DNA from: Vicinamibacterales bacterium
GTDB taxonomy: Bacteria > Acidobacteriota > Vicinamibacteria > Vicinamibacterales > UBA823
DNA: 64,000 nucleotides
Assembly: GCA_965197385.1 (NCBI GenBank)
Contig: CBDANA010000008.1
Span: forward strand, 31,717 to 95,716
Direction: 5' to 3'
The position numbers and the translations under genes were made by a program. The stretch's first letter is position 1. The number at the start of each line of letters is the position of its first letter. This document shows positions 1 to 51,043 of the stretch, piece after piece. The notes beneath the pieces were generated by a model, which was not told the DNA's origin, did not search any database, and worked only from the letters and a program-made list of their open reading frames with translations.

Positions 1-49
1 CATTCACTTAGCAAATCACGTGGTTCGGGTTCGACTCCCGCCGCTTCCA
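1..49 (+). ncRNA. 3' terminal part of a tRNA-like RNA (T-arm plus acceptor 3' strand), cut by the window edge; tmRNA (ssrA) or a tRNA
   Basis: Positions 25-41 fold as a T-arm (TCGGG / TTCGACT / CCCGC). Positions 42-48 (CGCTTCC) are the acceptor 3' strand and A49 is the discriminator. The implied 5' partner GGGAGCG would give a G3:U70 pair as in tRNA-Ala/tmRNA. No anticodon arm can be drawn in 1-24, which favours tmRNA. Only 49 nt are visible. Confidence 0.35.
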
Positions 50-350
50 AGGTCGCGTGCGGCTCAGCGCCGGCCACCGAGCAGGCCCGCACTGCAGAGG
101 ACGTACAGGCACGTCCTGCGCGGCGGTTCGGCTCTCTTGTGCCGCTGTCCGCCGGCCACGCGTACGCGTCGCTGGCCGACGCGCGATCGTCGTTCGGTGA
201 CAACGGCTGGGGTGACGATGGTGCCCCGCGGCGCTGATCAGCGCGTGGTCGTCTCGGCGGTCCACGATCTCAAGTCGTCCACAGAGGGTCTTCACCGCCC
301 TCGGACATCTGATTGCGAACGAGGGATACGATGAGGGGAAGAGCTTACAG

Positions 351-1806
351 CTACAGCTGTAAGCTATTGCTATAGAATGAGTTACATTGTCTCCATGGCA
401 GGCCGTCGTGCCACATGCCGTGCACCAGGAACGGCCAGCGCGCGGCCTTGTCGTCCAGCTCATACGGAAATTGCAAGCGCGTGGGATAGGTCGCGCGAAA
501 GGCATCGACCTGGGCGGTGGCGTCCTGGCGCATGGTGGCGATCCGCGCCTCGGCGTCCTGCTGAGGCCAAGGAGTCAAAGTCCCAATACAACTCAGCGGA
601 TCGAACATCGAGCATGGCGGGAACACTAGTGAGATTCTCGCCAAATGCCTTCGCAAGTTCAGACGCGGCGGAGGCGGCCATGTCTTCGATCCGGAGCGAT
701 GCCAACATATCTCGGACGAGAGCCAGCGCCGCGTCGCCGGACTCCCATCTCTCTGACGGTCGCATGACCATCTCTCCCGTGGCAGGATCGCGTTCAAACA
801 CCGGCGTCGCCTCAGTGAGCGCTGGGTGCAACCAGGCCAACAGCGCGATACCGTTTGACACTTGGACAGCGATGTCGGGTTCGGCAATGCCGGCGTCTTG
901 GATAGCGGCAGCCTGCGATTCCGCCATGAGCGAGAATACTGACTTGCCAAGGAACCGCTCGCGAGCGGCACCAATGAGCTGATGCAGGTATGGCACTTCC
1001 GCCGCCGGCCAGCTTACCTCTTCCATCACCATGCAGTCGTTGTCAGCGTTGTACCAACCGGCCCAGTCCGCTTCTGCCACTGACAGGTTGCGCGGAAACA
1101 CACATGCCGGCGACTGCGGGACGACCCAGTCGCGCTCGTTATGGACAACACCATCTGGCGAAACGACGAATGACCGACCGCTCTCGCCGTGGACAAGCAG
1201 GCGGTCTCCATCCTCTGTCTCGGTCGGTTCGGCAGGCTGCAGCGGCACCAGTGATGGACGGCCGAGTCTGATCGTGTGTGTGGCTCCCCGCGGCACATTT
1301 GCAGCGATGGCATCGACAATTCGGGTCAGTGACGGTGACAACCCCCTGAAGTCTAGGGTCCCGGTGATTAGTGCTTCTTTACACAAGACGGTTTCGCCGC
1401 CAGACTCGCTAGAATCGACGATTCGAGGGGGGCGGTATGGTGCAAACACGCCCCTCGACGTACTGACGTTCTGGAAATTCACGCTATATTCCGGAGTTGC
1501 GAACGGAGAAGTATCCACATGGATAGGCCTGTCGTCCACAGCACGGCGAACGATGAACGGAACGGCAACCGAGACCGCACGACGCTGAACCGAGTCCCCG
1601 TGGAGCCAGAGCTCAGTCAGGAGTGGGCTCGACAAGACATGGTCAACCAGTTGAAGCCCGTCCCAGAACTCCAGCTCAAACCCAGGAAAGTCATTCAGGT
1701 ACTCTCGTTTGCTTTGGGGAGAGAGCCGCGCCGTGGTCACGAATAAACCACTCTTACAGCCGAACTTCAGTAGGGCGTTGTTGCATGAATCGGAGCTAGC
1801 CCGCAC
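351..1806 (-). pseudogene. Disrupted gene: Mrr-type (PD-(D/E)XK) restriction-endonuclease-like domain fused to a ~380 aa domain of unknown family; 5' end cut by an IS, with a frameshift near 555-570
   Basis: ORF 460..1806 begins ..FGCKSGLFVTTARLSPQSKREY..FELEFWDGLQLVDHVL, which matches the C-terminal signature of Mrr-like nuclease domains. I do not recognise the rest. The coding-like frame switches near 555-570 into the frame of ORF 351..974 (..PWPQQDAEARIATMRQDATAQVDAF..). The upstream end abuts the IS5-family element. Confidence 0.5.
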
Positions 1807-2860
1807 CGATCCCGATCCACAGTTCCTTCACCGACCGATGCGGTACGACAATGGCCTGCCAAGCCCAGTCATCTGATTCAGGATGTTGCACGCGAGGACG
1901 ACCTCAGTCCCCCGCCCTGCGGGGCTGCACGCTCGAAGGCTGTCTCCGATGATCGACTTGTATCGGAAGAACGCGTTCTCCACGCGGGCCTGCCCATGAT
2001 AGCCCGACGTCTTCTTCCAGCGTCGCCGTCCTCTCTCCTTGACCGCCAGGATCGTGCGATCACGAGCGCTCGACCGCGGTCCGTATCGAGACACGTTGGC
2101 CGTCCTCGTCGGCGGAACCACGACGGTCGCGCCACGCGCACCGGCGGCCTCGTAAAAGCCGATCGTATCGTAGGCGGCATCCGCCGTCACCCGTCCGAGG
2201 GCGCCGTCGGTCGCCTCGATCAGCGCGATGCCAGTCGTCGCGTCGTCAACGCTCGCCTCCGTCAGGGCCCGGGCGACGATCACACCCGATCGGTCGACAC
2301 CAAGATGCAGCTTCTTCCAGCCTCGCCTCCCCCGTCCTCCATGTTTCGCCGCGGCCCATTCACCCTCGCCCACGATCGAGAGGCTCGTGCTGTCGACAAT
2401 GAGATGCAGGCCGGCACCGGCGGGGGCGCGACGCAGCGGGAGGTCGAGATGCTGGCCACGCCGGGAGAGCGTGGTGTGATCGGGCGCGGACAGGTCGAGA
2501 CCCAGCATCCCGAAGATCGACGTCAAGAAGCCTTCAGTCTGCCGCAAAGGCAGGTGGAAGATGAGCCGGAGCGTCAGCGCGGTTTCGATGGCGAGATCGG
2601 AATACTGCCGCTGCCCGCCACGTTTGCCGACGCCCACGGCCTCCCAAGTGGCGATCGCATCCGGGGCCAACCACACGGTGATATCGCCGCGCTGGACCAG
2701 CGCTCGGTCGTATGCCGGCCAATTCCCGACGTGGTATTTTGTCTTGTACTTTGGGTGCACGCTCGACTTCATGTCGAGATCATGCACCTGCTGTCGCCAC
2801 GATGGCCAGGAGGTCGATCGTGGCGCACCGAGGGCGCGGGATCCGTGCACCAACGCCGCC
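1800..2860 (-). mobile_element. IS5-family (IS903-group-like) insertion sequence, about 1.05 kb; ends approximate
   Basis: Contains the transposase below. An imperfect terminal match is seen between CGGGATCGGTGCGGG (reverse complement of ~1800-1815) and CGGGATCCGTGCACC (~2836-2850). I could not identify a target-site duplication. Confidence 0.6.
1828..2772 (-). CDS. IS5-family DDE transposase (IS903 group)
   Basis: ORF 1828..2892. The homologous part starts at MKSSVHPKYKTKYHVGNWPAYDRALVQRGDITVWL.. and continues through typical DDE_Tnp_1 blocks (..LHLIVDSTSL.., ..KLHLGVD.., ..ADAAYD.., ..RVENAFFRYK..). Confidence 0.9.
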   Translation of the reverse strand: MKSSVHPKYKTKYHVGNWPAYDRALVQRGDITVWLAPDAIATWEAVGVGKRGGQRQYSDLAIETALTLRLIFHLPLRQTEGFLTSIFGMLGLDLSAPDHTTLSRRGQHLDLPLRRAPAGAGLHLIVDSTSLSIVGEGEWAAAKHGGRGRRGWKKLHLGVDRSGVIVARALTEASVDDATTGIALIEATDGALGRVTADAAYDTIGFYEAAGARGATVVVPPTRTANVSRYGPRSSARDRTILAVKERGRRRWKKTSGYHGQARVENAFFRYKSIIGDSLRACSPAGRGTEVVLACNILNQMTGLGRPLSYRIGR

Positions 2861-3139
2861 CTGGGGGCGGTGCTGCTTGCCTGGCCGGACAACCGCGTGA
2901 CGCGGGATATCGACGTGCAGGTGTCGCCGGAGCGGGTCGCGGTTCGGCGGCGGTTCGGCTGGTAGTTCGTGGTGCGCGCTCTTCTCGAGTATCACGAGCC
3001 CCCACTGTTTGTCGCCGTTGGCCCGCAGGCGTTTCAGGTAGCGGTCAAATCGGCTGCATCGGTCCTCGAAGGCGATCTCCATCGGGTCTCGATTCGGAAA
3101 CGAGGGCTTGTGGACGACGCCGGGTGCTTCCGCCATCAA
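2861..3139 (-). pseudogene. Possible N-terminal fragment of the gene interrupted by the IS5-family element
   Basis: ORF 2780..3139 lies on the same strand and runs into the IS. The segment ..EIAFEDRCSRFDRYLKRL.. is loosely like the FE..l motif at the start of Mrr-type nuclease domains. The link to 351..1806 is inferred, not shown. Confidence 0.3.
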
Positions 3140-3215
3140 CTGTTGCTACCCCGCCCTTATCTCGTTCTAACCAAACCGCTTAGACTAGATATTCAGTGCC
3201 AGAGAGGTGCCAGCG

Positions 3216-3473
3216 TCAACATCGGCTGGAAGTATCTGGATGATTAGGGCTTAAGCTCTCTTCACCAACACTTGATGACGGAAGCACCGGACCGTCGCGC
3301 TGGACCCAGCGCCAGATGGTCGTGTGGTCCGCTTCCAGGCCGCGCTCGCGGAGCAGCTCTTCGACATCGCGGAACGAGAGCGAGTACCGAAGGTACCAGC
3401 GCACAGCACAAAGAATCAGCTCGGGCTCGGTTTGTCACCACTTGAAGATCGCCGGTCGGATTGCCTGCTTCAT
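3216..3473 (-). pseudogene. IS6-family transposase remnant (N-terminal ~65 codons, in-frame TGA, 3' truncated)
   Basis: The minus strand reads MKQAIRPAIFKW*QTEPELILCAVRWYLRYSLSFRDVEELLRERGLEADHTTIWRWVQR. This is the IS26-like N-terminus (..AVRWY..Y..SYR..EE...ERG..VDH.TI.RWVQR). A TGA lies at 3435-3437 and homology is lost below ~3285. Confidence 0.8.
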
Positions 3474-3515
3474 GATCTCTTCAGGCTACCAGCCGCCGCT
3501 GGCCAACGTTGCAAC

Positions 3516-4306
3516 GGCACAGTCAAGTTAACGAGTCCGGGACATACGAGGGCAGGCTAATCAGAGATCAGGCTGCCGTCACCGCGGTCCACACTGTGAA
3601 CGCTCGTGCCCGCAACATTCGATGCTGAACCGATCTCAGCCGGTGCCGACCCACGCGAAACAGATTGTGAATGATGCCGTGAACGTGCAAGAAACACTGC
3701 GCGTGGGCGGATGACGTGAAGCCGCGCATCTGACGCTCCCGTTGTCGCGTGGGTTGGTGCGACACTTCGGCCCGATTGTTCGCGTATCGCGTCGTGTCAT
3801 GGGTGACCAAAGGCATGACGTCCCGATGGGCGACACGGTAGCTGCCCAACGTGTCGGTCACGAGCCGCACGGGTTCCTGTCGCTGACTGTTCAACAGTCG
3901 GCGGAAGAATCTCCGCGCTGCCCGCGCGTCCCGACGGGGTTGTACGAGGATGTCGATCAGATCACCGTCTTGATCCACCGCGCGCCAGAGATACTGGCGC
4001 TCACCGTTGATCGTCACGAAGACTTCATCCAGGAACCACGTATCGCCGAGTCGACCCTGTCGGCGCTTCAACTGCCGAGCGTAGTCGGGGCCGAATGTCC
4101 CGCACCACTGCCGAATGGTTTCGTACGACACGATGATTCCTCGTTCGGCCAGCAGATCCTCAACATCCCGGAAGCTCATGCAGTATCTGTGGTAGAGCCA
4201 GACGGCATGGCTGATGATGTCGGGCGGAAAGCGATGCCGAAGGTAGCGGGGCCGGCGAGTGTTCATCCCGGCATTGTGCTGGGCGGAGAGTTAACTTGAC
4301 AATACC
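3516..4306 (-). mobile_element. IS6-family insertion sequence, copy 1 (~790 bp)
   Basis: Terminal inverted repeats are GGCACAGTCAAGTTAAC (3516-3532) and GGTATTGTCAAGTTAAC (reverse complement of 4290-4306). The flanking 8-mers differ, so there is no target-site duplication. Confidence 0.85.
3568..4266 (-). CDS. IS6-family transposase
   Basis: 232 aa, RFPPDIISHAVWLYHRYCMSFRDVEDLLAERGIIVSYETIRQW..LDEVFVTING..YLWRAVDQDG..TD.L.SY..NNRAEVSHQPTR.RER.MR.F. These blocks are IS26/IS6-like throughout. Confidence 0.92.
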   Translation of the reverse strand: MNTRRPRYLRHRFPPDIISHAVWLYHRYCMSFRDVEDLLAERGIIVSYETIRQWCGTFGPDYARQLKRRQGRLGDTWFLDEVFVTINGERQYLWRAVDQDGDLIDILVQPRRDARAARRFFRRLLNSQRQEPVRLVTDTLGSYRVAHRDVMPLVTHDTTRYANNRAEVSHQPTRQRERQMRGFTSSAHAQCFLHVHGIIHNLFRVGRHRLRSVQHRMLRARAFTVWTAVTAA

Positions 4307-4423
4307 CGCGACGTCGTGGTAGATGTTGACGGCGTCGACGCCCGCGGCCTGCAGCGCATCGCGCGGTAGGTCCAGCGACTAGGAGCCGTCCGCCTTGGAG
4401 ACGCGGGCGTAGCCGATCCGCCT
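4307..4423 (-). pseudogene. Serine recombinase (resolvase/invertase) N-terminal stub, truncated by IS6 copy 1
   Basis: The minus strand reads (AGG)RIGYARVSKADGS*SLDLPRDALQAAGVDAVNIYHDVAG and then runs into the IS6 inverted repeat. This matches the catalytic N-terminus MRIGYARVS..DQ.LD.Q...L..AG.....y.D. of serine recombinases. The start codon is AGG and a TAG lies at 4379-4381. Confidence 0.75.
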
Positions 4424-4462
4424 GTGTCGTAAACGGTCGTTTGCGATACACGGGCGATGGCC
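4403..4462. repeat. Imperfect ~60-bp palindrome (empty-site copy) upstream of and overlapping the recombinase stub start
   Basis: GCGGGCGTAGCCGATCCGCCTGTGTCGTAAACGG-T-CGTTTGCGATACACGGGCGATGGCC. The arms are about 75 percent self-complementary. The same sequence, split by the IS1182-family element, occurs at 9104-9137 and 10861-10884. Confidence 0.7.
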
Positions 4463-4573
4463 GAGGCGGTGCAGGTACCTACCGGCGCGCGGTGAAGCGG
4501 GCGACGAGGGCGTGATCCGCGCGGTTGAGGTCACGGTCCAGAGCGCGGCCGATGGTCGTCGGTCTGGGCGCCA

Positions 4574-4602
4574 TTGACTTAGGCGCCACTGACGTCTACG
4601 CT
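4574..4602 (+). promoter_or_regulatory. Possible sigma70-type promoter of the toxin-antitoxin operon
   Basis: TTGACT (4574-4579), a 17-nt spacer, then TACGCT (4597-4602), about 10 nt before the GTG at 4612. This is a pattern match only. Confidence 0.3.
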
Positions 4603-4611
4603 GTTTCTGAC

Positions 4612-4953
4612 GTGGGCCGCCTGCAAACCGTTGTGGAGACACCGGCCTACCTCAAGGCGGCCCGTGGCGTGCTATCTGACGCCCTCCGCGCGACAGTCGT
4701 CAATAGGGTGGCCGAGAATCCAGAGCTAGGCGTCCCGCTCGGTGGCGGTGTCCGAAAGGGCCGGGTCGCTCGTCTGGGACACGGGAAGAGCGTCGGGGCG
4801 CGCGTGGTGTTTCTGTTTGCCGGCGAGGACATTCCCGTGTTCCTGCTCACCGTCTTCGCCGAGAACGAGAAGGCGGATCTCAGTAACAGGGACCTGACGG
4901 CGTTGATCGCCACTGCGAAGGAGCTAGCCGCAGACTACAGGAGAGACCCATGA
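4612..4953 (+). CDS. RelE/HigB-like type II toxin (GKSGG-type addiction module killer)
   Basis: Lies within ORF 4525..4953. The blocks ..VVETPAYLKAA..NPELGVPLGGGVRKGRVARLGHGKSVGARVVFLFAGEDIPVFLLTVFAENEKADLS.. match the RK.R....GKSGG.RvIY....i.lL..y.KnE..dL pattern. The GTG start at 4612 was chosen for length. The stop overlaps the next gene (ATGA). Confidence 0.8.
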   Translation: MGRLQTVVETPAYLKAARGVLSDALRATVVNRVAENPELGVPLGGGVRKGRVARLGHGKSVGARVVFLFAGEDIPVFLLTVFAENEKADLSNRDLTALIATAKELAADYRRDP

Positions 4954-5267
4954 CCAAGGCAGTCGATAAGATCAGGGCCGGGCTCGACGATGCGCGCGCC
5001 TACCTGCATGGTGATCACGCCGGGTTCGCCGTGCATGAAATCGAGGTGTCTTGTCCAGATGTTGTTGCGATCCGAAGCAAGACGGGGCTATCGCAACCGG
5101 CCTTTGCGAGGAGCATCGGCATTCCGCTCGGCACGCTCAAGAACTGGGAGCAGGGCCGCCGCCGGCCGGAGGGACCGGCGCGCGTGCTACTCGCGCTGAT
5201 TGATAAACGGCCGGCGATTGTCCAAGAAGAGTTGGGCGCTGACTCGGAAACGGACGTGGGACCATAA
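4950..5267 (+). CDS. HTH (XRE-family) antitoxin, HigA/NadS-like
   Basis: 105 aa, ..IRSKTGLSQPAFARSIGIPLGTLKNWEQGRRRPEGPARVLL.. This is the typical SQ..FA..lG....Tl..WEQGrr.P pattern. It overlaps the toxin by 4 bp. Confidence 0.85.
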   Translation: MTKAVDKIRAGLDDARAYLHGDHAGFAVHEIEVSCPDVVAIRSKTGLSQPAFARSIGIPLGTLKNWEQGRRRPEGPARVLLALIDKRPAIVQEELGADSETDVGP

Positions 5268-7708: not shown

Positions 7709-9007
7709 TTACAGCCAAGCGAACTTCACGGCGAAGAGAAATGCCACCGCGATCAATGTCGGCGAACACTCACCTCGGCGTCCCGCCATCCCCTTGATCA
7801 AGACGTAGGTGAGGAAGCCGAGGCCGAGGCCGTCGGCAATGGAGAACGTCAACGGGATGGCGATCCCGGTCATGACGGCGGGGGCGGCCTCGGTGACGTC
7901 GCGCCAGTCCACCTCTGCCAGTGGTCGCACCATAAGACATGCGACATACAGGAGGGCGGCCGCCGTCGCCTGGGGTGGTATGGACTCGGCCAGCGGCGCG
8001 AGAAAAAGGCAGGAGAGAAACAGCCCGGCGACCACAACTGCGGTCAGACCCGTACGCCCACCTGCGCTGACACCCGTTGCGCTCTCGATGTAGCTCGTCA
8101 CCGGGGAGGTGCCGAGCAGGGTGCCGCCTATCGTGCCCGTCGAATCGGCGATCAGCGCTCTTTGCATGCCCGGTAGACGTCCGCCCTCGTCCAGAAGCTG
8201 CGCCTGGTGTGCGACACCGATGAGTGTCCCGGTCGTGTCGAACAGGTCGACCATGAGGAACGCGAGGATGACCGTAATCATGCTCGCCTGCAGCGCACCC
8301 GCGATGTCCAGGGCCAGCAGCGTCGGCGTCGGATCAGGTGGTAGCGACACGATGCCCTGCCACTCAGAGACACCGAGAGCGAGGCCGGCACCGGCGACAC
8401 CCAGCATCCCGATGATCGCCGCGCCGGGCACACGGCGCGCCGACAGCGCCACGATGGTGCAGAAACCGAGCAGGGACAACACCGGCCCAGGCGTCATCAA
8501 CTCACCGGCGGTGACCAGCGTCGCTTCGCTGGCTTGGATGATGCCGGCGTTCCGCAACGCGATGACCCCAAGCAAGAGGCCAATCCCGGCCACGATGGCC
8601 AGTTGCAGTCCTTGGGGGATCGCTTCGAGGATCCAGCGTCGCACCGGCAGTATGCTGAGAATCAGGAACAGCACACCCGAGACGAAGACCGCGCCGAGCG
8701 CGACCTCCCACGTGTGGCCCAGACCGAGGACGACACCGTAAGCGAAGAACGCGTTGAGTCCCATGCCCGGCGCCAGCGCGATCGGGTAGTTGGCATACAG
8801 CCCCATCACCAGAGTGCTGAACGCAGCGGACAGACAAGTGGCAACGAACACCGCGTCGAACGGCATGCCAGCCTCGGAGAGGATCTGGGGGTTGACAAAG
8901 GCGATATAGGCCATCGTCAGGAATGTCGTCACACCCGCCCTCACCTCTGTCCGCACGTCAGTGCCGCGCTGTGCCAAACTGAAGAAGCTTTCAAGCGTCG
9001 CGGCCAT
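7709..9007 (-). CDS. NCS2-family nucleobase permease (AzgA/adenine-guanine-hypoxanthine type)
   Basis: 432 aa, ..FSLAQRGTDVRTEVRAGVTTFLTMAYIAFVNPQILSEAGMP..LAPGMGLNAFFAYGVV.., and multi-pass hydrophobic throughout. Confidence 0.88.
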   Translation of the reverse strand: MAATLESFFSLAQRGTDVRTEVRAGVTTFLTMAYIAFVNPQILSEAGMPFDAVFVATCLSAAFSTLVMGLYANYPIALAPGMGLNAFFAYGVVLGLGHTWEVALGAVFVSGVLFLILSILPVRRWILEAIPQGLQLAIVAGIGLLLGVIALRNAGIIQASEATLVTAGELMTPGPVLSLLGFCTIVALSARRVPGAAIIGMLGVAGAGLALGVSEWQGIVSLPPDPTPTLLALDIAGALQASMITVILAFLMVDLFDTTGTLIGVAHQAQLLDEGGRLPGMQRALIADSTGTIGGTLLGTSPVTSYIESATGVSAGGRTGLTAVVVAGLFLSCLFLAPLAESIPPQATAAALLYVACLMVRPLAEVDWRDVTEAAPAVMTGIAIPLTFSIADGLGLGFLTYVLIKGMAGRRGECSPTLIAVAFLFAVKFAWL

Positions 9008-9137
9008 GGGTTCCTCTAGTCGATTCTCGCTGGCTTCGCCGCATTAGGCGCATCCGCCGCCCTGTCCATTCCTGGCGTCTGTCTCGGTGCCGTGCTTGAT
9101 TTTGCGGGCGTAGCCGATCCGCATGTGTCATAAACGG

Positions 9138-10860
9138 CCCAGACCGTGTGAAAAGTCCAAGTCGTGGGTCGCTGATCCGGCAGCATCGAGGCTTGAGCAC
9201 GGTGGCGGGCTCGCGACCGCGGCGCCGATCAGTCGGGGCGTCAGTCGTGTCGGTCGCGTGAGGGACTGCTGCGATCGCCTGACGGCCAGATTCGGGCTGA
9301 TTGTCGCCCTGGAAGCGGGCGAAATAGGGGTTCAGCCGGCTGCCGCGGCGATCATCGCGGGAAGTCCCGCGAGATTGATCGCGCGTCGCATGTTGTAGGC
9401 CAAGGCGGTGAGGCTGAACTCCCCGCGGACGTTGTCGAGTCGACGCGTCAGGAACGCGCCCTGGCCCATCCACTGCTTGATCGACCCGAAGGGATGTTCG
9501 ACGGACTCCCGACGACGGTCCATCACCTCGGGCCGAGCCGCGAGGCGAGCCGCCATCCGATCCATCGTGGCTTCGTTCTCGTAGCGGACGAGCCGTCGGT
9601 GGGTGCCTTTGGTGCATCGGTCGCGTCGATCGCAGGACCGGCAGGCTGCGCGATTACCGTAGCTGATCACCCAGATCCCGTCGCGGGTCTTGCCGGCCCT
9701 GCCCCGATACAAGGGCACCAGACGCTGGCCAGCCGGACAACGGTAGGTGTCGGTTGCGGCGTCGTACTGGAACTCGGACTTGGTAACGTGGCCGCTGCTC
9801 CTGGCTGGGCTTCTATCGGGCTTCGGCACGAAGGGCGTGATCCCCCCAGCTTCGCAGTCCTCCATGTCCTCGATCTTGTAGTAGCCGCCGTCCGCGACCG
9901 CATCGAGCTCGTCGACAGCGAGGTTCTGCCGCGCCGCGGTGGCCGTCTCCGCCAGCAGGCCGAGGTCCGAGACCTTGCTGTGGACCTGCTGCTCGGCGAT
10001 CAGGTTGTGCTTGCTGTCGACCGCGATCTGGACGTTGTAGCCCACGCCGACCCGTGTCCCGGAGTGCATCGACCGGGAGTCCGGATCCGTAAGCGACAGC
10101 TGTGCCTCCCCGGTCTCGTCCAGCTTCTGCCGATGGCCCTCCAAGGTCTCCTTGCGTTTGCGGATCGACGCGATCTTGTCCTGAAGGTCCGCTACGGAGT
10201 TCCCTCCACCGCTGGCTGCGTTCGCATCGGCCTCGTTCATCTGTTCGAGGTAGCGTTCCAGCTGGTCGTCGATGCGCTGCAGGTCCCTCTTCAACGTGGC
10301 TCGCGTGAAGTTGCGGTCACGGTTGTTCACCGCCTTGATGCGCGTGCCGTCCACCGCGATCAACTCGCGCCCGTACAGGTCAAGTTCTCGGCATAGCCGC
10401 ACGAACTCCCGAAAGACCTGCCGGAAGGCGCTCCGGTTGTCGCGGCGGAAGTCGGCGATCGTCTTGAAGTCGGGGCGAAGCTGGCGCAGCAGCCAGATCA
10501 CCTCCAGGTTGCGGTGCGTCTCGACCTCCAGGCGCCGGCTGGACCGAACACGGTTGAGATACCCGTAGATGTAGAGCTTCAGCAGATCCGCAGGATCGTA
10601 GCCCGGGCGGCCCTTGTCGTTGGGCCGAACGCGCTGGAACCCCGTCTCCTCGAGATCGAGGCTATCGACGAAGGCATCAATGAAACGGACCGGGTTGTCC
10701 GGCCCCACATAATCGTCCACAGCGTCGGGGAGAAGCAGAAGCTGGGAACGGTCTTCACCGGATATGTGTCCCATGCCGCATTTTACCGAACGCCGTGGTG
10801 ACTCGCCGCTGGCTGATCGACCCTAAGCACTCCTGTCGACGACTTTTCACACGGTCTGGG
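9138..10860 (-). mobile_element. IS1182-family insertion sequence (1723 bp) with perfect 20-bp terminal inverted repeats, inserted at the centre of a palindrome
   Basis: CCCAGACCGTGTGAAAAGTC at 9138-9157 is the exact reverse complement of 10841-10860. The flanks 9104-9137 and 10861-10884 reconstitute the palindrome seen intact at 4403-4462. Confidence 0.88.
9332..10774 (-). CDS. IS1182-family transposase
   Basis: 480 aa, MGHISGEDRSQLLLLPDAVDDYVGPDNPVRFIDAFVDSLDL..GRPGYDPADLLKLYIYGYLNRVRSSRRLE..NLEVIWLL..L.PDFKTIADFRRDN.. Confidence 0.92.
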   Translation of the reverse strand: MGHISGEDRSQLLLLPDAVDDYVGPDNPVRFIDAFVDSLDLEETGFQRVRPNDKGRPGYDPADLLKLYIYGYLNRVRSSRRLEVETHRNLEVIWLLRQLRPDFKTIADFRRDNRSAFRQVFREFVRLCRELDLYGRELIAVDGTRIKAVNNRDRNFTRATLKRDLQRIDDQLERYLEQMNEADANAASGGGNSVADLQDKIASIRKRKETLEGHRQKLDETGEAQLSLTDPDSRSMHSGTRVGVGYNVQIAVDSKHNLIAEQQVHSKVSDLGLLAETATAARQNLAVDELDAVADGGYYKIEDMEDCEAGGITPFVPKPDRSPARSSGHVTKSEFQYDAATDTYRCPAGQRLVPLYRGRAGKTRDGIWVISYGNRAACRSCDRRDRCTKGTHRRLVRYENEATMDRMAARLAARPEVMDRRRESVEHPFGSIKQWMGQGAFLTRRLDNVRGEFSLTALAYNMRRAINLAGLPAMIAAAAG

Positions 10861-11016
10861 CCGTTTGCAACACACGGGCAAAGGCGCCTTCCGACGCCCA
10901 CCACCGTGTGTCGTATCCCGTGTCGGATTCTATGTCTTGCAGACGTCACGCGAAACAGCAGGGCTCGGAGACCTACCTTGGCCGTCGGCCAGGTCACGAT
11001 CTTCGTGGTGCCAAGA

Positions 11017-11901: not shown

Positions 11902-12706
11902 GGTACTGTCAAGTTCAGTGGGAGCGTGGCAGACTTGGCCGATGAAACACGACACGCTGAGCTACCATGGATATCGATTTCCCCCCGAGATCATCAGCCA
12001 CGCCGTCTGGCTGTATCACCGCTTCGGTGTGAGCTTTCGCGATGTCGAAGATCTCCTGGCCCAACGCGGCATCACGGTGTCCTACGAAGCGATCCGGCTG
12101 TGGTGCCTCACGTTTGGTTCAGTATACGCTCGCCGGCTCAAGCGTCGACAGGGCCGGCTGGGCGACATCTGGCACCTGGACGAGGTCTTCGTCACCATCC
12201 AGGGACAGCGGCGCTATCTCTGGCGTGCCGTCGATCAAGATGGTGACGTCATCGATATCCTCGTCCAGTCGCGTCGCGACTGTCGGGCGGCTACACGCTT
12301 TTTCCGCAAGCTGTTGAAGGGTCAGGAGCGTACGCCTGGGCGGTTGGTCACCGACAAGCTGAGCAGCTACAGGGCTGCGCACCGAGCGGCCATGCCGTCC
12401 GTCGCCCATCGCACGGACCGATACGAGAACAATCGTGCCGAAGTCTCCCACCAGCCCACACGGCAACGCGAGCGACACATGCGCCGGTTCAAATCTCCCG
12501 GGCAGGCACAACGATTCTTGTCCGTGCATGGACTCGTCCGCAACCTCTTCCGCGTTGGCCGTCACCTGGTGCGAGCGGTGCATCATCGGGAGCTACGAGG
12601 ACGCTCTTTTCTCATTTGGGATGCAGTCACGCTCGCCGCCTGACTCGAACTGAGATCACGACCCCGAGTACCGGCTCGCTCGACGAACGCTAACTTGACT
12701 GTGAGC
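11902..12706 (+). mobile_element. IS6-family insertion sequence, copy 2 (~805 bp), inverted relative to copy 1
   Basis: The ends are GGTACTGTCAAGTT (11902-) and ..AACTTGACTGTGAGC (12692-12706), sharing the ACWGTCAAGTT core with copy 1. Confidence 0.85.
11942..12643 (+). CDS. IS6-family transposase
   Basis: 233 aa starting at MKHDTLSYHGYRFPPEIISHAVWLYHRFGVSFRDVEDLLAQRG... By eye it is about 70 percent identical to the copy-1 protein. Confidence 0.92.
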   Translation: MKHDTLSYHGYRFPPEIISHAVWLYHRFGVSFRDVEDLLAQRGITVSYEAIRLWCLTFGSVYARRLKRRQGRLGDIWHLDEVFVTIQGQRRYLWRAVDQDGDVIDILVQSRRDCRAATRFFRKLLKGQERTPGRLVTDKLSSYRAAHRAAMPSVAHRTDRYENNRAEVSHQPTRQRERHMRRFKSPGQAQRFLSVHGLVRNLFRVGRHLVRAVHHRELRGRSFLIWDAVTLAA

Positions 12707-12953: not shown

Positions 12954-14039
12954 GTGACGAACCACAGGACTATCCAGCCTGACGCGCGGAAGGTGATCGT
13001 CGGCGTGGACACCCACAAGCACGTCCACGTGGCCGTGGCGATCGACACGAGGGGGGTCCGCCTCGACGATCGATCGTGTGCCGCCGACTCAGACGGCTAC
13101 CAACAGCTGATCACCTGGGCCGAGCGTCACGGCCGCATCGCCGCGTTCGGCATCGAGGGCACCGGCAGCTACGGGGCGGGACTCACTCGCGCGGTCCGGC
13201 GAGCCGGGCACCAGGTGCTCGAAGTGAACCGAGGCGACCGGCGCACACGTCGAATCGCCGGGAAGTCCGACCCCGTGGATGCCGAGACCGCCGCGCGGTC
13301 GGTTCTGGCGGGCCAATCGACCGCCATCCCGAAGACCGCGGACGGAGCGGTCGAGATGATGCGCCACCTCAAAGTCGCGCGCCGGACGGCGGTCAAAGCC
13401 CGCACCTCGGCGATGATCACGCTGAAGCAGATCGTCGTCACCGCGCCGCCCGCGCTGCGAGAGACCCTCAACCCGCTCGCCGACCAGGCGCTCCTCAAAC
13501 GCTGCCGCGGATGGCGCTGCGGCACGATCGATACGCCGACCGCCTCGGCGAAACATACCCTCCGGGCGCTCGCCCGTCGCTGGTTCGCTCTCTCCGTCGA
13601 AATCGTGGACCACGACCGTCACGTGAGTCGACTCACCACCCAGACCTCACCGACGCTGCGTGAGGGCTTCGGCATCGGTGCCGACACCGCCGCCGAACTG
13701 CTGATCATCTTTGGCGACACCCCCGATCGGATTCATTCTGAAGCCGCCTTCGCCAAGCTTTGCGGGGCCTGCCCCATCCCGGCTTCGTCCGGGATGACGA
13801 CGGGGCGCCACCGCCTCTACCGCGGCGGTCATCGCCAGGCCAACGCCGCGCTCCACCGGGCCGTCATCGTGCGGATGCGGTTCCACACACCAACCCTCAA
13901 CTACGTCGAACGACGCACCGCTGAAGGGCGGCCCAAACGGGAGATCATCCGCTGTCTTAAACGCTTTCTCGCCCGCGAGATCTTTCAGCGCGTGATGGCA
14001 GACTACCGAGCGCGCCAAGCCGCAGACTTGGCGGCCTGA
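12954..14039 (+). CDS. IS110-family transposase/recombinase
   Basis: 361 aa, ..VIVGVDTHKHVHVAVAID..FGIEGTGSYGAGL..AGH.VLEVN..KSDPVDAE.AAR.. (DEDD N-domain) and a C-terminal ..PIPASSG....HRL.RGG.RQANAALH... block. GTG start. Confidence 0.92.
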   Translation: MTNHRTIQPDARKVIVGVDTHKHVHVAVAIDTRGVRLDDRSCAADSDGYQQLITWAERHGRIAAFGIEGTGSYGAGLTRAVRRAGHQVLEVNRGDRRTRRIAGKSDPVDAETAARSVLAGQSTAIPKTADGAVEMMRHLKVARRTAVKARTSAMITLKQIVVTAPPALRETLNPLADQALLKRCRGWRCGTIDTPTASAKHTLRALARRWFALSVEIVDHDRHVSRLTTQTSPTLREGFGIGADTAAELLIIFGDTPDRIHSEAAFAKLCGACPIPASSGMTTGRHRLYRGGHRQANAALHRAVIVRMRFHTPTLNYVERRTAEGRPKREIIRCLKRFLAREIFQRVMADYRARQAADLAA

Positions 14040-14070: not shown

Positions 14071-14125
14071 CCTGGCGGGATGCATCGGCGGTCGAATGCA
14101 GCGGGACTTTCACCACGGGTTGCTA
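14071..14125. repeat. Half copy (~53 bp plus TA) of the MITE found intact at 17446-17639
   Basis: TGGCGGGATGCATCGGCGGTCGAATGCAGCGGGACTTTCACCACGGGTTGC-TA is the reverse complement of 17448-17500 with 3 mismatches over the 53 bp. It is cut on its inner side by the IS110-family element. Confidence 0.8.
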
Positions 14126-14194
14126 AGGCTGCCCGGGCCAGGGACGTGTTTGCCCGACACGAGGGTACAATCTCGACCTAAGGCCTCTCCACCC

Positions 14195-16905: not shown

Positions 16906-17448
16906 ATGACCGAGCACCTCCCTTACACGGCCACGACCCTGTCGGCAGCCTACGAAGGCATCGACCGTCTCCCGGTGTCGTTGCTCCTCGACAACGTCCG
17001 CAGCCTGTACAACGTCGGAGCCTTCTTCAGGAGCGCCGACGCCGCCGGGCTCGACCACCTCTACCTGTGTGGCTACACGGGTCACCCGCCGAGCCGCGAG
17101 ATCGCGAAGACCGCGCTCGGCGCGGAAACGGCGGTCGCGTGGAGCCGATGCGCCGATCCGCGGGCGCTGCTGGAACGGCTCGCGACGGACGGCGTCGAGC
17201 TCGCGGCGATCGAAACGAGCGTGCGGGCCGTCGATCTGTTCGACTGGGAACCGAGGTTTCCCATCTGTGTCCTGTTCGGGAACGAGGTCGAGGGACTGCG
17301 CGCGGAGTTGCTGGAGCGATGCGACACGCACGTGAGGCTGCCCATGCTGGGTGTGAAGCGCTCGCTCAACGTCGCGACCGCCGGCGGCGTCGTCGCCTAT
17401 GAGCTGCTGCGCAAGTACCGACACCGCCTCGAGCTGGCGCCGCGCTAG
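16906..17448 (+). CDS. SpoU/TrmH-family RNA 2'-O-methyltransferase
   Basis: 180 aa, ..LLLDNVRSLYNVGAFFRSADAAG..LFGNEVEGL..LPMLGVKRSLNVATAGGVVAYEL.. Its TAG stop (17446-17448) is built from the MITE junction. Confidence 0.85.
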   Translation: MTEHLPYTATTLSAAYEGIDRLPVSLLLDNVRSLYNVGAFFRSADAAGLDHLYLCGYTGHPPSREIAKTALGAETAVAWSRCADPRALLERLATDGVELAAIETSVRAVDLFDWEPRFPICVLFGNEVEGLRAELLERCDTHVRLPMLGVKRSLNVATAGGVVAYELLRKYRHRLELAPR

Positions 17449-17639
17449 CAGCCCGTGGTGAAAGTCTCACTGCATTCGACCGCCGATGCATCCCGCCATG
17501 GGCGGCGCTGGGCGTTGTCCACGATGGGTCAAATACTCCCGGTATGCTCCCGCCTCGCGCCTGGCGGGGCCGACCGCTGCCTCGGGCTTGACCTTAGCGG
17601 GGTCTCGGTGCCGCGCTGGACTTTCACCACGGGCTGCTA
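17446..17639. mobile_element. MITE (190 bp) with 19-bp perfect terminal inverted repeats and flanking TA duplication
   Basis: TA-GCAGCCCGTGGTGAAAGTC (17446-17466) ... GACTTTCACCACGGGCTGC-TA (17619-17639). There is no ORF inside. The TA flanks fit IS630/Tc1-mariner-type transposition. Confidence 0.75.
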
Positions 17640-24358: not shown

Positions 24359-25627
24359 TCATCGCCCGGCCGCCCGCAGCCGGACAGGGTCGTAGACACG
24401 GCCGTCCTTGACGACACGCCAGATCCGCGCCGTCGCCTCGATCGCGTCGCTGGGGTCGCCCTCCACGACCACGACGTCGGCGTACTGCCCCACGTCGATC
24501 GCCCCCAGCGTGTCGGCGCGGCCGAGCGCCCGCGCCGCCGTCGCCGTCGCACCGCGCAACGCGGCGCATGGGCTCAGCCCGCAGCGCACGAGCAGCACCA
24601 GCTCTTCGTGCAAGTCGCCCAGATCCTCCGTGTCGGTACCGGCGCCAATCGTCACCCCTCGACGGGCGGCCTCGCCCACCATACGGCACGCCGCGTCGAA
24701 TCCACGCAGCGCCCGTGCGCGGTCCTCGGCGCTCCAGCCGCGCGTCAGCGGCACCTGTCCACTCGCCAGGCGATGGCCGAGCACGAGCGTCGGCGTCCAG
24801 ACCGTGCCCGTCTCCGCGAGCCGCTGCAAGAGCCGCCCCGCGCGCGCGGACGATGGATCCAGGTGATTCGCCCAGCGTGTGTAAATCTGGAAAAATGCGT
24901 CGGCCGTCGTGACCGGCGCCGGCCCAGACCACTCTGGCAGCAACTCGCGAAAGATGTACAGGTGTTCGACGCCGTCCACGCCAAAGTCGAGAGCCAGGGA
25001 CAGCGGGACGCTGAGATGCCACGTGACCGGGAGCCCGCGGGCGTGGGCCTCCTGGATGGCGACCTGCGCGTGGGCCGCCGGCGTGCGCATGTAGAGCTTG
25101 ACGAGATCGATCCCGGCGGCTGCCGCCGCAGCAACGTCACGCCGGACCGACCCGCGCGTCTGCCCCGCCAACAGGTCGAGCAGCAGCCCGACGAACAGTC
25201 GAGGCCCAGCCATCCGGCCCGCCTCGATCGCCGCGCGGGTACGGCACGCACGCTCGAGGTCGGCGCCCGGAGCGCGCACGGTGGTCACGCCGTGGGAGAG
25301 CCACCGTGCAGGAGCCGCGGACACGCTGGCCGCGTGCTGATGCAGATCGATGAGCCCCGGGATGACCACACGGCCGCCAACGTCGAGCGTCGCTGCGTCC
25401 AGGGGCAGGCGCAGATCGGCGTCGGCGCCGACCCACCCAACGACGGTGCCCTCGACGACCACGGCGCGGTCCACACCGGGAAACGGCGTGGTGCCGGCTA
25501 GCAGCGTGGCGTGCCGGATGACAAGAAACGGCGCGGACCCGGTCGAGCCGGCCTGCGCGGCCGCGCCGCCGGTCAGGCCGGCTAGGCACGCCGCCGCGAG
25601 CAGCCCGAGGCGAAAATCCCGCTGCAT
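24359..25627 (-). CDS. Secreted amidohydrolase-family protein
   Basis: 422 aa with a signal peptide; ..VVIPGLIDLHQHAA..VDGVEHLY..GAGTD..CGLSP..ALRGATATAARALGR.DTLGAIDVGQYADVVVVEGDP.. Confidence 0.85.
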   Translation of the reverse strand: MQRDFRLGLLAAACLAGLTGGAAAQAGSTGSAPFLVIRHATLLAGTTPFPGVDRAVVVEGTVVGWVGADADLRLPLDAATLDVGGRVVIPGLIDLHQHAASVSAAPARWLSHGVTTVRAPGADLERACRTRAAIEAGRMAGPRLFVGLLLDLLAGQTRGSVRRDVAAAAAAGIDLVKLYMRTPAAHAQVAIQEAHARGLPVTWHLSVPLSLALDFGVDGVEHLYIFRELLPEWSGPAPVTTADAFFQIYTRWANHLDPSSARAGRLLQRLAETGTVWTPTLVLGHRLASGQVPLTRGWSAEDRARALRGFDAACRMVGEAARRGVTIGAGTDTEDLGDLHEELVLLVRCGLSPCAALRGATATAARALGRADTLGAIDVGQYADVVVVEGDPSDAIEATARIWRVVKDGRVYDPVRLRAAGR

Positions 25628-25657
25628 TCGGTTCCTGACCGTAATTCGATGTGACGC

Positions 25658-31446: not shown

Positions 31447-31562
31447 ACTCATACTCATACTCATACTCATACTCATACTCATACTCATACTCATACTCAT
31501 ACTCATACTCATACTCATACTCATACTCATACTCATACTCATACTCATACTCATACTCATAC
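31447..31562. repeat. Perfect hexanucleotide microsatellite, (ACTCAT)x19 plus AC
   Basis: Counted directly: 114 nt of uninterrupted ACTCAT units from 31447 to 31560, followed by AC. It is AT-rich in a GC-rich context and reads (ATGAGT)n on the minus strand. Confidence 0.98.
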
Positions 31563-48601: not shown

Positions 48602-51043
48602 TCAGCGGCTCAGCGGCTCAGCGGGCACCAGCCGTTCGGTGCGCTCAGCGACCGACTCGATCGTTGCGCGCGAATAGAATACTGGAAAATACTTCCCCTC
48701 CGCCCACAGGTCGAAGAGATCGCGGTAATGCGGGTCGTCGGGATCGCCCGACTGCCCCGGCGCGTTGGTCCCAACCGAATGGTCCCAGTTCTCGGTGTCG
48801 GCAATGATCCGGAACGAGGCGCCCGACGTTTGGTTGTCGCCGTTGCCGGTGTTGTTGAGGGTACGGCCGTAGCCGCCGCGGGCCACGGGGCCCACGTCGA
48901 GCCTGGCTCGTGTCGCGTCGTCGACCGCCGAGCTCATCGGGTGGCGGATCAAGGCGTGCTTGTACGCCGGCTGGCCGTACCGCCACGCGCGCATGTCCGG
49001 CCCCAATCGTGATTCGAGATCATCGATCGCCTGCTGTAAGCTGTCGGCGAGCAGCCGATCGCGGCCGGCGATCGGGTCGTCACCGAAGCGCCCGTCGGGT
49101 GCCGCCAGCCAGTTGAGGAGCTTCTTCATATTGAGCCCACCGAGCAGATCGCGGATCGACTCCGGCACCAGGAGATCCCGGGCATTGCTCGCGAGACGCC
49201 GTTCCCACGCCACGTAGATCGCCGCGGCAATCGACTCACGGTCGAGCACGGCGTCCCACTCCAGCAGCCGACGGCGCGCCTCACGGGCCGTGTCTCCGTC
49301 GATGCTGACACCCTCCAGAAACGGCACGAGGTTGCGCGCCAGCACCGACAGCTCGTCGTGCTGCAAGCGCATCATGTCGATGATGGTGTGCCGCCGCCCG
49401 GACCGGAGCACCTCGTTCAGCCGGACGGCACGCAATTCGTCGCCCCACGTGTAGTGCAGCGCATCGAGGTGAGGGTAACCGTTGGGCACCATGAAGTTGT
49501 TCGCCGTGCCGAAATATCCCTCGGGCGGGTTGACGACGTGCGGCAGCGCCTGGATCGGCAGGTAGCCGTCCCACTCGTATCGACCGTCGCCCGGCATCGG
49601 AACGAGGCCGCTCCAGTTCGGTCGGATGGGTGACACGCCGACGGCCTGATAGCCGATCGTCTTCTCTCGATCGGCCCACACCATGTTCTCCGCCGGAATG
49701 CGGCTGTAGCTGCACGCCTCCCGGAACGCCTCCCAGGTGGTGGCCTGGTCCATTCTGAGGCTCGCCAGGTACGGGGCCGACCCGATGTCGAGCCACGCCG
49801 CCCGCAACGCATAGGCCGTGTGATGCTCGAGATCCTCGTGCAGCACCGGGCCGTGACGCGTGTACTTGAGCGCCACCGTGACGGGCGACTCTCCCTTGAC
49901 GGTAATCTCCTCCTCGATGACCCGCATGCGCTCCCAGCCGCCGAGGTACCGGTACTCCAGCGGGTCATCCGGATTCGTGTCGTAAACGTACAGGTCCTCG
50001 CTGTCTTGACCGAAGACAGTCAAGCCCCAGGCGCCGTACTCGTTGTGGCCGATGGAGACGCCAGGCAGAACCGGCTCACCACCGCCGATGACGTTCCACC
50101 CAGGTCCGACGAGGTGCACCCAGTAACGGAGCGATGGCGCCTGCTGGACGCGATGCGGATCGTTCGCCATGAACGGGAAGCCGCTCAGCGTCCGTCCGTC
50201 GCCGATCACCCAGTTGTTGCTGCCGATCGCTTCATGCTCGTCGGCCAGGTCCGCTTCGGCCGGGATCGCCGCCGCGCGCCCCTCGAAGGACGCCCGGTCG
50301 GCCCGGAACGCCGGGACGATGTCTTCGGGAACGAAGCGGATCGGCCGCTTGAAGGCTCGATAGACGGTCAGGATCTCGTCGGTCAGGAGCGTTCCGTCGA
50401 TGGCCGGGTCGAGAGCAAGGTCGGGCTCTCCCGGCCTGAACCAGGACAGCTCGCGCACCTGCTCGGCCCCGACGCGCTCGACCGCCTGCCCGTACGCGAC
50501 CTCGCTGGTCAGATTGGCGAGGAGCCCCTGATGCCGAGAGATCACGACTTCGGCGGTCCAATGGCCCGGCGTGATCCCGAGCAGCGCGAACTCGATCGGG
50601 AGCAACTCGGGCTGCTGCTCGCTGAGATTGATGTAGGCGTTGATCCCGCGAACGAACGCCTGGATGATGGCCTCACCGTGCGGGTGATAGTGGTTGAGCT
50701 CCTGCTGAAGATTGCCGCGAACTCGAAGAAGGCGAGTGCCGATGTCGTCTTCCAGCATCCGCCGGCCGAGGATCTCCGCAGTCGTTCCAGTCGCCTTGCG
50801 ACGCCACAGCTCGAACTGAAACAGCCGGTCGCGCGCCGCGTTGAATCCCTGGGCGAAGAACAGATCGGCTTCGGTCTCGGTGTAGATATGGGCGATGCCC
50901 CACCGGTCCTTGATGATCTCCACCGGCTCGGTGAGCCCGGCCAGTTGCAGGGTTTCCGCCTGCGCCTGTGCGCGGCCGGTCGTACCGACCAGCCCAGCAA
51001 AGACGAACACGAGACCGATGGTCACGAGACGAATGATCTTCAT
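48602..51043 (-). CDS. Penicillin acylase family protein (peptidase S45, Ntn hydrolase)
   Basis: ORF 48602..51193, start MKIIRLVTIGLVFVFAG (51043). ..IKDRWGIAHIY.....DLFFAQGF..A.DRLFQ.E..RR...G..AE..G.. and the nucleophile region ..IGSNNWVI. Confidence 0.88.
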   Translation of the reverse strand: MKIIRLVTIGLVFVFAGLVGTTGRAQAQAETLQLAGLTEPVEIIKDRWGIAHIYTETEADLFFAQGFNAARDRLFQFELWRRKATGTTAEILGRRMLEDDIGTRLLRVRGNLQQELNHYHPHGEAIIQAFVRGINAYINLSEQQPELLPIEFALLGITPGHWTAEVVISRHQGLLANLTSEVAYGQAVERVGAEQVRELSWFRPGEPDLALDPAIDGTLLTDEILTVYRAFKRPIRFVPEDIVPAFRADRASFEGRAAAIPAEADLADEHEAIGSNNWVIGDGRTLSGFPFMANDPHRVQQAPSLRYWVHLVGPGWNVIGGGEPVLPGVSIGHNEYGAWGLTVFGQDSEDLYVYDTNPDDPLEYRYLGGWERMRVIEEEITVKGESPVTVALKYTRHGPVLHEDLEHHTAYALRAAWLDIGSAPYLASLRMDQATTWEAFREACSYSRIPAENMVWADREKTIGYQAVGVSPIRPNWSGLVPMPGDGRYEWDGYLPIQALPHVVNPPEGYFGTANNFMVPNGYPHLDALHYTWGDELRAVRLNEVLRSGRRHTIIDMMRLQHDELSVLARNLVPFLEGVSIDGDTAREARRRLLEWDAVLDRESIAAAIYVAWERRLASNARDLLVPESIRDLLGGLNMKKLLNWLAAPDGRFGDDPIAGRDRLLADSLQQAIDDLESRLGPDMRAWRYGQPAYKHALIRHPMSSAVDDATRARLDVGPVARGGYGRTLNNTGNGDNQTSGASFRIIADTENWDHSVGTNAPGQSGDPDDPHYRDLFDLWAEGKYFPVFYSRATIESVAERTERLVPAEPLSR

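Follow-up and report, generated by a model that had tools for sequence, protein, structure and literature searches.

An IS1182-family insertion sequence in a Vicinamibacterales genome probably selects, by sequence, the centre of a resolvase-site palindrome in a decayed Tn3-family module

Introduction

Insertion sequences (IS) of the IS1182 family range from about 1.3 to 1.95 kb in length (ISfinder). Among the described members, ISPse1 of Paracoccus seriniphilus is 1653 bp long, ends in 16-bp inverted repeats and generates a direct repeat of 4 bp (PMC3281130), and MITEPye1/ISPye18 of P. yeei has 18-bp inverted repeats and 4-bp direct repeats (PMC11578231). The subject of this report is an unnamed member of the same family, located at 9140-10858 of a 64,000-nucleotide stretch of a Vicinamibacterales genome (assembly GCA_965197385.1, contig CBDANA010000008.1, positions 31,717 to 95,716), which we call the window, and inserted in a palindrome beside the remnant of a serine resolvase gene (tnpR). 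The window IS resembles ISPse1 and ISPye18 in having one DDE transposase, a length of ~1.65-1.7 kb, inverted repeats of 16-18 bp and a 4-bp duplication, and the Paracoccus relatives in our sample share its tip CAGACYGTGTG (L011; loci are designated by L numbers throughout). It differs from them in that the amino acid identity is at most ~65%, and the available portions of the two papers report neither a target consensus nor a preference for resolution sites (res).

Targeting of inverted repeats is already known in the family from IS1272/TnSha1 of Staphylococcus (PMC5678879, PMC4923244), and some IS1182 members target palindromes according to Siguier et al. (2015), as cited in PMC4923244. IS1272, however, makes no duplication, partly deletes the hairpin that it enters and has no primary-sequence consensus, whereas the window IS is flanked by a 4-bp duplication, has retained the whole target with both half-sites, and belongs to a group with a clear sequence logo.

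A second point of comparison is offered by elements that are associated with res sites. Tn5053 and Tn402 are Tni-type transposons that depend on the resolvase of their target. Like the insertions studied here, those of these 'res hunters' gather in or beside the res of mobile elements (PMC9374279, PMC12217951), but the window IS is a one-gene element and not a member of that group, and its res sites can be predicted from insertion sites that have no resolvase nearby. The target itself is closest to the res of Tn5393 (Tn163 subgroup, Tn3 family), with which the window shares a TnpR N-terminus at 76-80% identity, a CAAAC-N4-GTTTG palindrome over the tnpR ATG and a distal CGTYTNCAAGAC motif, and whose 125-bp tnpA-tnpR intergenic region has a layout comparable to that of the distal res-like region described below. 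Unlike Tn5393, the window holds only fragments of tnpR and no tnpA. Finally, the sister family IS5 has a related DDE transposase (the window protein gave a weak match to its model NF033581) and produces a 4-bp duplication at a short symmetric target; the window IS differs in having a target of ~28 bp rather than 4 bp and a longer transposase.

Results

We place the IS at 9140-10858 (minus strand), which gives a length of 1719 bp with the tip CAGAC[CT]GTGTG at both ends, perfect 18-bp inverted repeats, and a 4-bp target-site duplication GGCC whose left and right copies lie at 9136-9139 and 10859-10862. The repeats occupy 9140-9157 (plus strand, CAGACCGTGTGAAAAGTC, at the end 3′ of the transposase gene) and 10841-10858 (minus strand, at the end 5′ of it). 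The sole long open reading frame (ORF) between them is an intact transposase gene (9332-10774, minus strand) encoding 480 amino acids with the Pfam domains DUF772 (PF05598), DDE_Tnp_1_6 (PF13751) and DDE_Tnp_1 (PF01609). The product matched the NCBIfam model NF033551 (IS1182 family) over profile positions 2-487 of 488 with a score of 398.9 bits against a cutoff of 270, whereas the IS5-family model NF033581 did not reach its cutoff. These results bear out the family assignment made in an earlier reading of the window from its letters and ORFs (the sequence-only reading), and the domain architecture, the 18-bp repeats, the length and the 4-bp duplication are likewise those of an IS1182 element. 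As judged from its ORFs and Pfam matches, the element codes for this single DDE transposase and has no Tni-like accessory proteins.

The window contains one copy of the IS. Near-identical copies (L001, L204, L205 and L220) are likewise 1719 bp long, with 97-99% nucleotide identity. The relatives used for comparison comprise 80 loci with 46-97% amino acid identity, taken from one-genome-per-species contigs and anchored on the tip CAGAC[CT]GTGTG[AG]AAA, and further close relatives gathered through protein homologues (L204-L233 among them); L221-L228, which are short-read contigs carrying P0018 whose flanks mismatch each other and which are maybe assembly chimeras, were used as half-sites only. 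An exact-protein look-up found no identical transposase in the assembly collection, a plasmid megablast with the IS gave only partial matches of 60-80%, and a metagenome scan with the 18-nt tip returned 120 stretches and no further close copy of this IS. The element is intact and probably active; the indirect signs of activity are the undamaged ORF, the perfect inverted repeats, the preserved duplication and the presence of copies with 97-99% identity at different loci.

With a palindromic target centre, the ends of the IS are ambiguous from the window alone. Exactly two copies of the 20-mer CCCAGACCGTGTGAAAAGTC, inverted with respect to each other, are present there (9138-9157 and 10841-10860; 0 such matches are expected by chance), and the palindromic GGCC mimics two extra inverted-repeat bases on each side, so that duplications of 0 bp (leaving a 1723-bp IS), 2 bp or 4 bp each restore AAACGGCCGTTT from the window sequence. 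The sequence-only reading had described a 1723-bp element with 20-bp terminal repeats and no evident target duplication, and had treated two sites in the window as a before-and-after pair that fixes the ends to the nucleotide, which the palindromic centre does not allow. The ends were instead read from the relatives. An exact 4-bp direct repeat abuts the tips in 38 of the 53 loci that are readable at both tips and flanks, and 27 of these 38 duplications are non-palindromic (for example CTTG, CAAG, GGTG, GCAT, ATAC, CACG and GATG). In close relatives with 82-98% amino acid identity the duplications are GGTC, AGCC, GAAC, GTTC, GGAG, CACC and TACC; among them are GGTC in L204 (98%), the non-palindromic AGCC in L205 (96%), GTTC in L208, L212 and L215 (85%), GAAC in L209/L210 and CACC/TACC in L231-L233. 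The bases outside CAGAC thus differ from copy to copy, and an unoccupied paralogous site in the window has 4 nt (GGTC) at its centre. The additional bases of the 20-bp repeat, and those of a 26-bp inverted repeat that had been put forward as an alternative terminus, are accordingly assigned to the target.

In five relatives (L010, L014, L016, L072 and L077) the 4-mer on one side of the IS is the reverse complement of that on the other, and this inverted repetition extends further into the flanks, reaching 74 nt in L014. Such flanks may reflect duplication-free insertion into a palindrome of greater length, or IS copies may have exchanged their flanks.

The target is a 28-bp palindrome (12+4+12), TGTGTCATAAAC-GGCC-GTTTGCAACACA, extendable to ~36 bp, and the IS sits exactly at its dyad centre, as the sequence-only reading had it; the sequences quoted in that reading were also found where it had placed them. 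The left 12-bp half-site (9124-9135, plus strand), read from the sequence and from homologous plasmid sites, overlaps the start codon of tnpR, and the right half-site (10863-10874, plus strand) has two mismatches to the pattern of the left one. The tnpR remnant (9104-9124, minus strand) consists of seven codons (ATG CGG ATC GGC TAC GCC CGC, MRIGYAR), and its junction is kept in L204. Homology between the two window copies of the site stops at 9104 on the tnpR side and their similarity ends a few bases beyond the palindrome; what had been described as a palindrome of ~60 bp is the 28-bp core with its extension, and the remainder of the 54-60 bp of similarity is the first seven codons of the resolvase gene. 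On the other side of the IS, a distal res-like region (10875-10950, plus strand) contains three tandem TGTC-type 12-mers (10906-10947) and is conserved in related loci. The TGTC motifs previously noted at 10905-10935 are real and form part of this array, which is conserved beside the same IS in L001, L205, L208, L215 and L220. The res layout, read from sequence alone, thus comprises one inverted 12-bp pair and three tandem TGTC-type 12-mers.

A CAAAC-N4-GTTTG palindrome overlaps the tnpR ATG in Tn5393, in an Agrobacterium Tn3-like element and in an Octadecabacter plasmid, and in the first two of these tnpA is divergent and 125 bp away. No remnant of tnpA was detected in the window. The 12+4+12 geometry of the palindrome resembles that of gamma-delta site I, the crossover site. 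By its position relative to tnpR, the palindrome matches Tn3 site III (PMC7157771). We identify it as the putative tnpR-proximal subsite of a res-like region belonging to a decayed Tn5393-like (Tn3-family) transposon, an identity that the sequence-only reading had overlooked, and resolvase would be expected to bind there.

The unoccupied palindrome, TGTGTCGTAAAC-GGTC-GTTTGCGATACA, lies at 4423-4450 (plus strand) and is a paralogue of the filled site. Positions 4403-4436 and 9104-9137 form a 34-nt direct repeat with 94% identity, and the filled site minus the IS and minus one GGCC is colinear with 4403-4456 (48/54 identical, 89%). Beside the unoccupied palindrome is a decayed 5′ fragment of tnpR (4307-4423, minus strand), in which the start ATG has become AGG and which reads RIGYARVSKADGS, an in-frame TAG, and then SLDLPRDALQAAGVDAVNIYHDVA. 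In a tblastn comparison this fragment was 76% identical to Tn5393 TnpR over 37 amino acids (E = 8e-12), and its peptide shares 77-80% identity with proteins annotated as TnpR or recombinase that are encoded by more than 2000 plasmids. The tnpR fragments in the window are thus 7 and 38 codons long. Because the tnpR homology at the empty site ends ~40 nt from an IS6-family transposase gene, and because of a GG...TGT...CAA motif that we take to be an IS6-type end, the fragment was read as truncated by IS6; a search for terminal repeats of this IS6 element gave no convincing pair. Since the tnpR remnants are decayed and no tnpA remnant is detectable in the window, both window copies are relics of a Tn3-family module, and the empty site is a paralogue in a different context with its own decayed tnpR 5′ end, not the pre-insertion allele. 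The sequence-only reading was therefore right that an uninterrupted palindrome is present in the window and mistaken in taking it for the empty state of the filled site. It had also proposed a search for further empty palindromes; in the 64 kb, an uninterrupted AAAC-N4-GTTT was found once, at this same empty site, and a candidate third copy at 49976 was rejected as a non-palindromic chance match.

The empty palindrome and its tnpR fragment are adjoined by a pair of genes for a RelE-like toxin and a helix-turn-helix (HTH) antitoxin (4525-5267, plus strand; Pfam RelE, PF06296, and HTH_31/MqsA_antitoxin), with the toxin at 4525-4953 and the antitoxin at 4950-5267. Toxin-antitoxin modules beside res have been described for Tn3-family transposons (PMC7157771), and the placement of this pair, as judged from its gene context, matches that position. 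A further pairing of such a module and a resolvase with this IS group occurs in L232, where genes for a Gp49 toxin, an HTH antitoxin and a resolvase are clustered (43-1066) at a distance of ~360 nt from a relative with 82% identity to the IS.

Insertion next to resolvase genes was found to recur. Among relatives with at least 79% identity, 10 of ~27 distinct loci (the window, L001, L204, L205, L208, L212, L215, L209/L210, L220 and L233) have the IS at, or at most ~150 nt upstream of, the start of a serine-resolvase gene. Duplication and orientation are combined in at least six different ways among these ten loci, which points to at least six independent insertions in sites upstream of resolvase genes. 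In L209/L210 the IS lies between an intact Tn3-family tnpA (DUF4158, DDE_Tnp_Tn3) and an intact tnpR (Resolvase), where it divides codons 10-11 of the restored ORF MAHPETVPETNVKETDGPARNGDILGYARVS, and an intact resolvase is also present in L233. More distant relatives in L005, L011, L019, L053 and L076 lie 40-170 nt upstream of resolvase genes, and Resolvase is the commonest Pfam family among the flanking ORFs of more distant relatives. The association with res is not family-wide. A protein search of plasmids found annotated IS1182 transposases, and the four contexts inspected, from Enterobacter, Klebsiella, Paracoccus and a Ti plasmid of Agrobacterium, were without a resolvase next to the IS.

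Two of the close copies bear on the history of the filled site. L204 (ENA ERZ25072076 ctg223964, 1-4443) shares window positions 7724-9157, which include a permease gene, the tnpR remnant of seven codons and the left half-site, with 97.4% identity over 1434 nt; its IS is inverted, 98.9% identical to the window copy and flanked by GGTC, and its right flank is unrelated to that of the window (ammonium transporter side). Because homologous recombination between IS copies cannot invert an IS against a flank that is retained, at least two insertions must have taken place at this chromosomal site. The IS of L001 matches that of the window with 98.3% identity, but across its res and tnpR flanks the identity falls to ~88%. 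With a divergence of 1.7% against ~12%, the IS is younger than its flanks.

The target preference was then read across the relatives. A logo from the half-sites of 37 non-redundant loci (relatives with at least 58% identity) was most informative at positions -11 (C), -8 to -6 (AAA) and -5 (C/T), beyond which comes the 4-bp stagger. The sequence-only reading had proposed an alignment of the flanks of IS copies; run on relatives from other genomes, it showed that insertion at the centre of AAAC-N4-GTTT-type palindromes recurs. Within-locus symmetry exceeded that of permuted controls in one subclade (6.8 versus 5.5 matches of 12, p = 2e-4) and in the other (7.9 versus 5.8 of 12, with 0/5000 permutations attaining the observed value); in the clade below 58% identity there was no excess of symmetry over permuted controls. 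A position weight matrix was built only from 39 insertion sites of relatives without a resolvase gene nearby and was run on the window from which the IS had been removed. The results showed that the filled site ranked first (17.5) and the empty site second (17.3) of 62,249 window positions, while the next best score in the rest of the window was 11.8 (mean -14.6, sd 6.2). Together, the logo and symmetry, the recurrence, the twice-hit site, the younger age of the IS relative to its flanks and the matrix prediction indicate that the palindrome is a target of this IS group.

Other recurrent targets were seen in more distant elements. A subclade at 68-69% identity (L006, L008, L047, L049, L051 and L052; also L009 and L064) occupies one conserved position in an apparently istA-like gene, which we take from its N-terminal motif to be an IS21-like istA. 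This hot spot, GGCTAYACC-NNNN-GTGAAGGA, is occupied in several alphaproteobacterial genomes; the insertions lie in either orientation, and their 4-bp duplications differ. In the metagenome scan, the 18-nt tip proved common to many IS and miniature inverted-repeat transposable element (MITE)-like elements with other recurrent targets. The tips of a pair are only ~100-165 bp apart in L117, L120, L125, L127, L133, L139 and other loci, which suggests MITE-like derivatives, and a recurrent flank, GCCGCC[CT]AACAACTCGC directly abutting the tip, with the partner flank TCGCTGCAGC[CT]GAC, points to one more highly specific target, used by a different lineage.

Several further repeats and transposase genes surround the locus. 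Two IS6-family transposase genes in inverted orientation, at 3568-4266 (minus strand) and ~11950-12643 (plus strand), bracket the whole region from 3.5 to 12.7 kb, within which lie the IS1182 element, the permease gene and the two res relics; the two transposase genes have weak DNA similarity, with one 36-nt inverted match at 78% complementarity, and no clear terminal repeats were found for them. A further IS6 fragment lies at 3216-3404. An IS110-family transposase gene (12954-14039; DEDD_Tnp_IS110 and Transposase_20) directly precedes a 60-nt repeat at 14073-14132, whose inverted counterpart at 17439-17498 is 90% complementary. Between the two lie 3.3 kb of sequence with, among other things, a class I/II aminotransferase gene; 8 kb beyond, at 25599-25630, there is a third copy, which is partial. 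This 60-nt sequence may be a MITE-like or repetitive extragenic palindromic (REP)-like repeat, or a target of the neighbouring IS110 element. A perfect hexanucleotide tandem repeat, (ACTCAT) x 19.3, is present at 31447-31562.

Discussion

We consider it quite probable that this IS1182-family element entered the dyad of a tnpR-proximal res palindrome by a 4-bp staggered insertion and that its choice of target was driven by sequence. In such a mechanism the DDE transposase, presumably as a dimer, would read a symmetric duplex of approximately TGTC-N3-AAAC, the 4-bp stagger and GTTT-N3-GACA, with the strongest positions at C (-11), AAA (-8 to -6) and Y (-5). The IS ends would be joined to positions 4 bp apart and centred on the dyad, and gap repair would then generate the GGCC duplication. 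The cuts would be staggered, and neither a host protein nor a resolvase would be required; resolvase-binding palindromes would simply happen to be the sequences that best fit the transposase preference in a GC-rich genome.

Two alternatives concern the ends of the element. If insertion had been blunt at the dyad, the IS would be 1723 bp long with 20-bp inverted repeats and no duplication, which the palindromic centre would hide in the window by itself and for which IS1272 of the same family, inserting without duplication, provides a precedent (PMC5678879, PMC4923244). We regard this as very unlikely, since the sequence outside CAGAC is variable and yet directly repeated over 4 bp in 38 of 53 loci, and since the 96% copy L205 and the 98% copy L204 have AGCC...AGCC and GGTC...GGTC in the same kind of site. 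It is also hardly credible that an inverted repeat of 26 bp or more is the true terminus, in which case part of the palindrome would belong to the IS and the target would be non-palindromic. The inverted repeat does reach 45 nt at 82% complementarity, and L003 too has AACGGCC beside the tip on both sides; but the empty paralogue has both half-sites contiguous without an IS, Tn5393 and other plasmids carry the palindrome upstream of tnpR without an IS, and other close relatives have TATA, GCAC, GTTC or GAAC adjoining the tip.

Three further alternatives concern the choice of site. Recognition could be directed by structure, as in IS1272, with a hairpin, a cruciform or single-stranded hairpin DNA as the recognised form. 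IS1272/TnSha1 indeed target hairpins with little sequence conservation, the targets studied here are more symmetric than their shared consensus predicts, and the inverted flanking 4-mers of five relatives could mean that a hairpin tip was lost. The restored target, however, folds at -5.1 kcal/mol (z = 0.11), no better than shuffled sequences, so that hairpin stability was rejected as the recognised feature of the filled target, and the Tn5393 site gave -2.9 kcal/mol (z = -0.9). Moreover, there is a clear primary-sequence logo, a sequence-only matrix finds both sites among 62,249 positions, and the target is undeleted with a 4-bp duplication. Structure-directed targeting is therefore unlikely, and of the earlier suggestion of palindrome or hairpin targeting the former survives, with palindromes hit repeatedly and more symmetric than permuted controls, and the latter does not. 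An attraction of the IS to resolvase-bound or bent DNA, similar to that of Tn5053/Tn402, we likewise judge improbable. In its favour, ~40% of the close relatives have inserted at the start of a resolvase gene or near it, Resolvase leads the Pfam families flanking the more distant ones, and the half-site presumably resembles TGTC-type resolvase half-sites. Yet most sites of the relatives are surrounded by ordinary chromosomal genes and are free of resolvase genes over 1.5-2.5 kb, a matrix from resolvase-free sites alone predicts the res palindromes, and a single DDE transposase without Tni-like accessory proteins is all that the element encodes. The absence of any site preference, with one ancestral res insertion having spread together with its host transposon, would account for the shared orientation, GGCC and ~97% identity across res, IS and the truncated tnpR in the window, L001 and L220, and these three may descend from a single event. 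As a general explanation it is highly improbable, given the other loci with GGTC, AGCC, GTTC, GAAC and CACC in both orientations relative to tnpR, the inverted IS at the same chromosomal junction in L204, and the 1.7% divergence of the IS in L001 against ~12% for its flanks.

Some observations nevertheless weigh against sequence-driven, staggered insertion at a res palindrome. The res subsite represented by the palindrome is ambiguous, with a position that fits Tn3 site III and a geometry that fits gamma-delta site I; the five relatives with inverted rather than direct flanking 4-mers are left unexplained by the simple model; the window, L001 and L220, by sharing orientation and duplication, may stem from one event; and all tnpR copies in the window and most of those in related loci are decayed, so that a resolvase could have had a role at the time of insertion. 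The main conclusion is unaffected by the inverted 4-mers, the ambiguous subsite, the unrelated right flank of L204 and the end of similarity between the two window copies a few bases beyond the palindrome.

A bolder and more tentative idea, which we think possible though less likely than its opposite, is that this IS1182 lineage of Acidobacteriota is a one-protein hunter of res sites, whose transposase has evolved to read the resolvase-bound TGTC...AAAC-N4-GTTT...GACA. If so, the IS would land preferentially in the res/tnpR control regions of other transposons and plasmids, knocking out resolution and regulation of the host element and being carried along by it as a parasite of parasites, and its 28-bp target specificity would be unusual for a DDE insertion sequence. 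An IS that lands in res would be carried on mobile vehicles, at a distance from host genes, and would disable transposon resolution and regulation. Such an effect fits the decay of almost all adjacent tnpR genes, to which ascertainment also contributes because only IS-holding loci were sampled.

The element is a new, unnamed member of a known family and behaves in character, since palindrome targeting and 4-bp duplications have already been published for its relatives, and the recurrent use of Tn3-family tnpR-proximal res palindromes is a modest extension of that behaviour. In the literature we found no description of res targeting by the IS1182 family or of a predictable target of ~28 bp; the one related item was an incidental case, an insertion containing ISCfr1 in the res site of a Tn402 element (PMC9374279). 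For annotation, the analysis provides the exact ends of an unnamed IS together with a rule, namely that palindromic duplications should not be taken for longer inverted repeats or for a missing duplication. The transposase is also a possible starting point for the study or engineering of sequence-selective DDE integration. For the biology of mobile elements, the locus offers a well-supported example of a DDE insertion sequence with a long, symmetric and matrix-predictable target that coincides with putative Tn3-family resolvase-binding sites. Such a preference, if genuine and in need of no other protein, would help to explain the decayed Tn3-like modules found around this IS in soil genomes.

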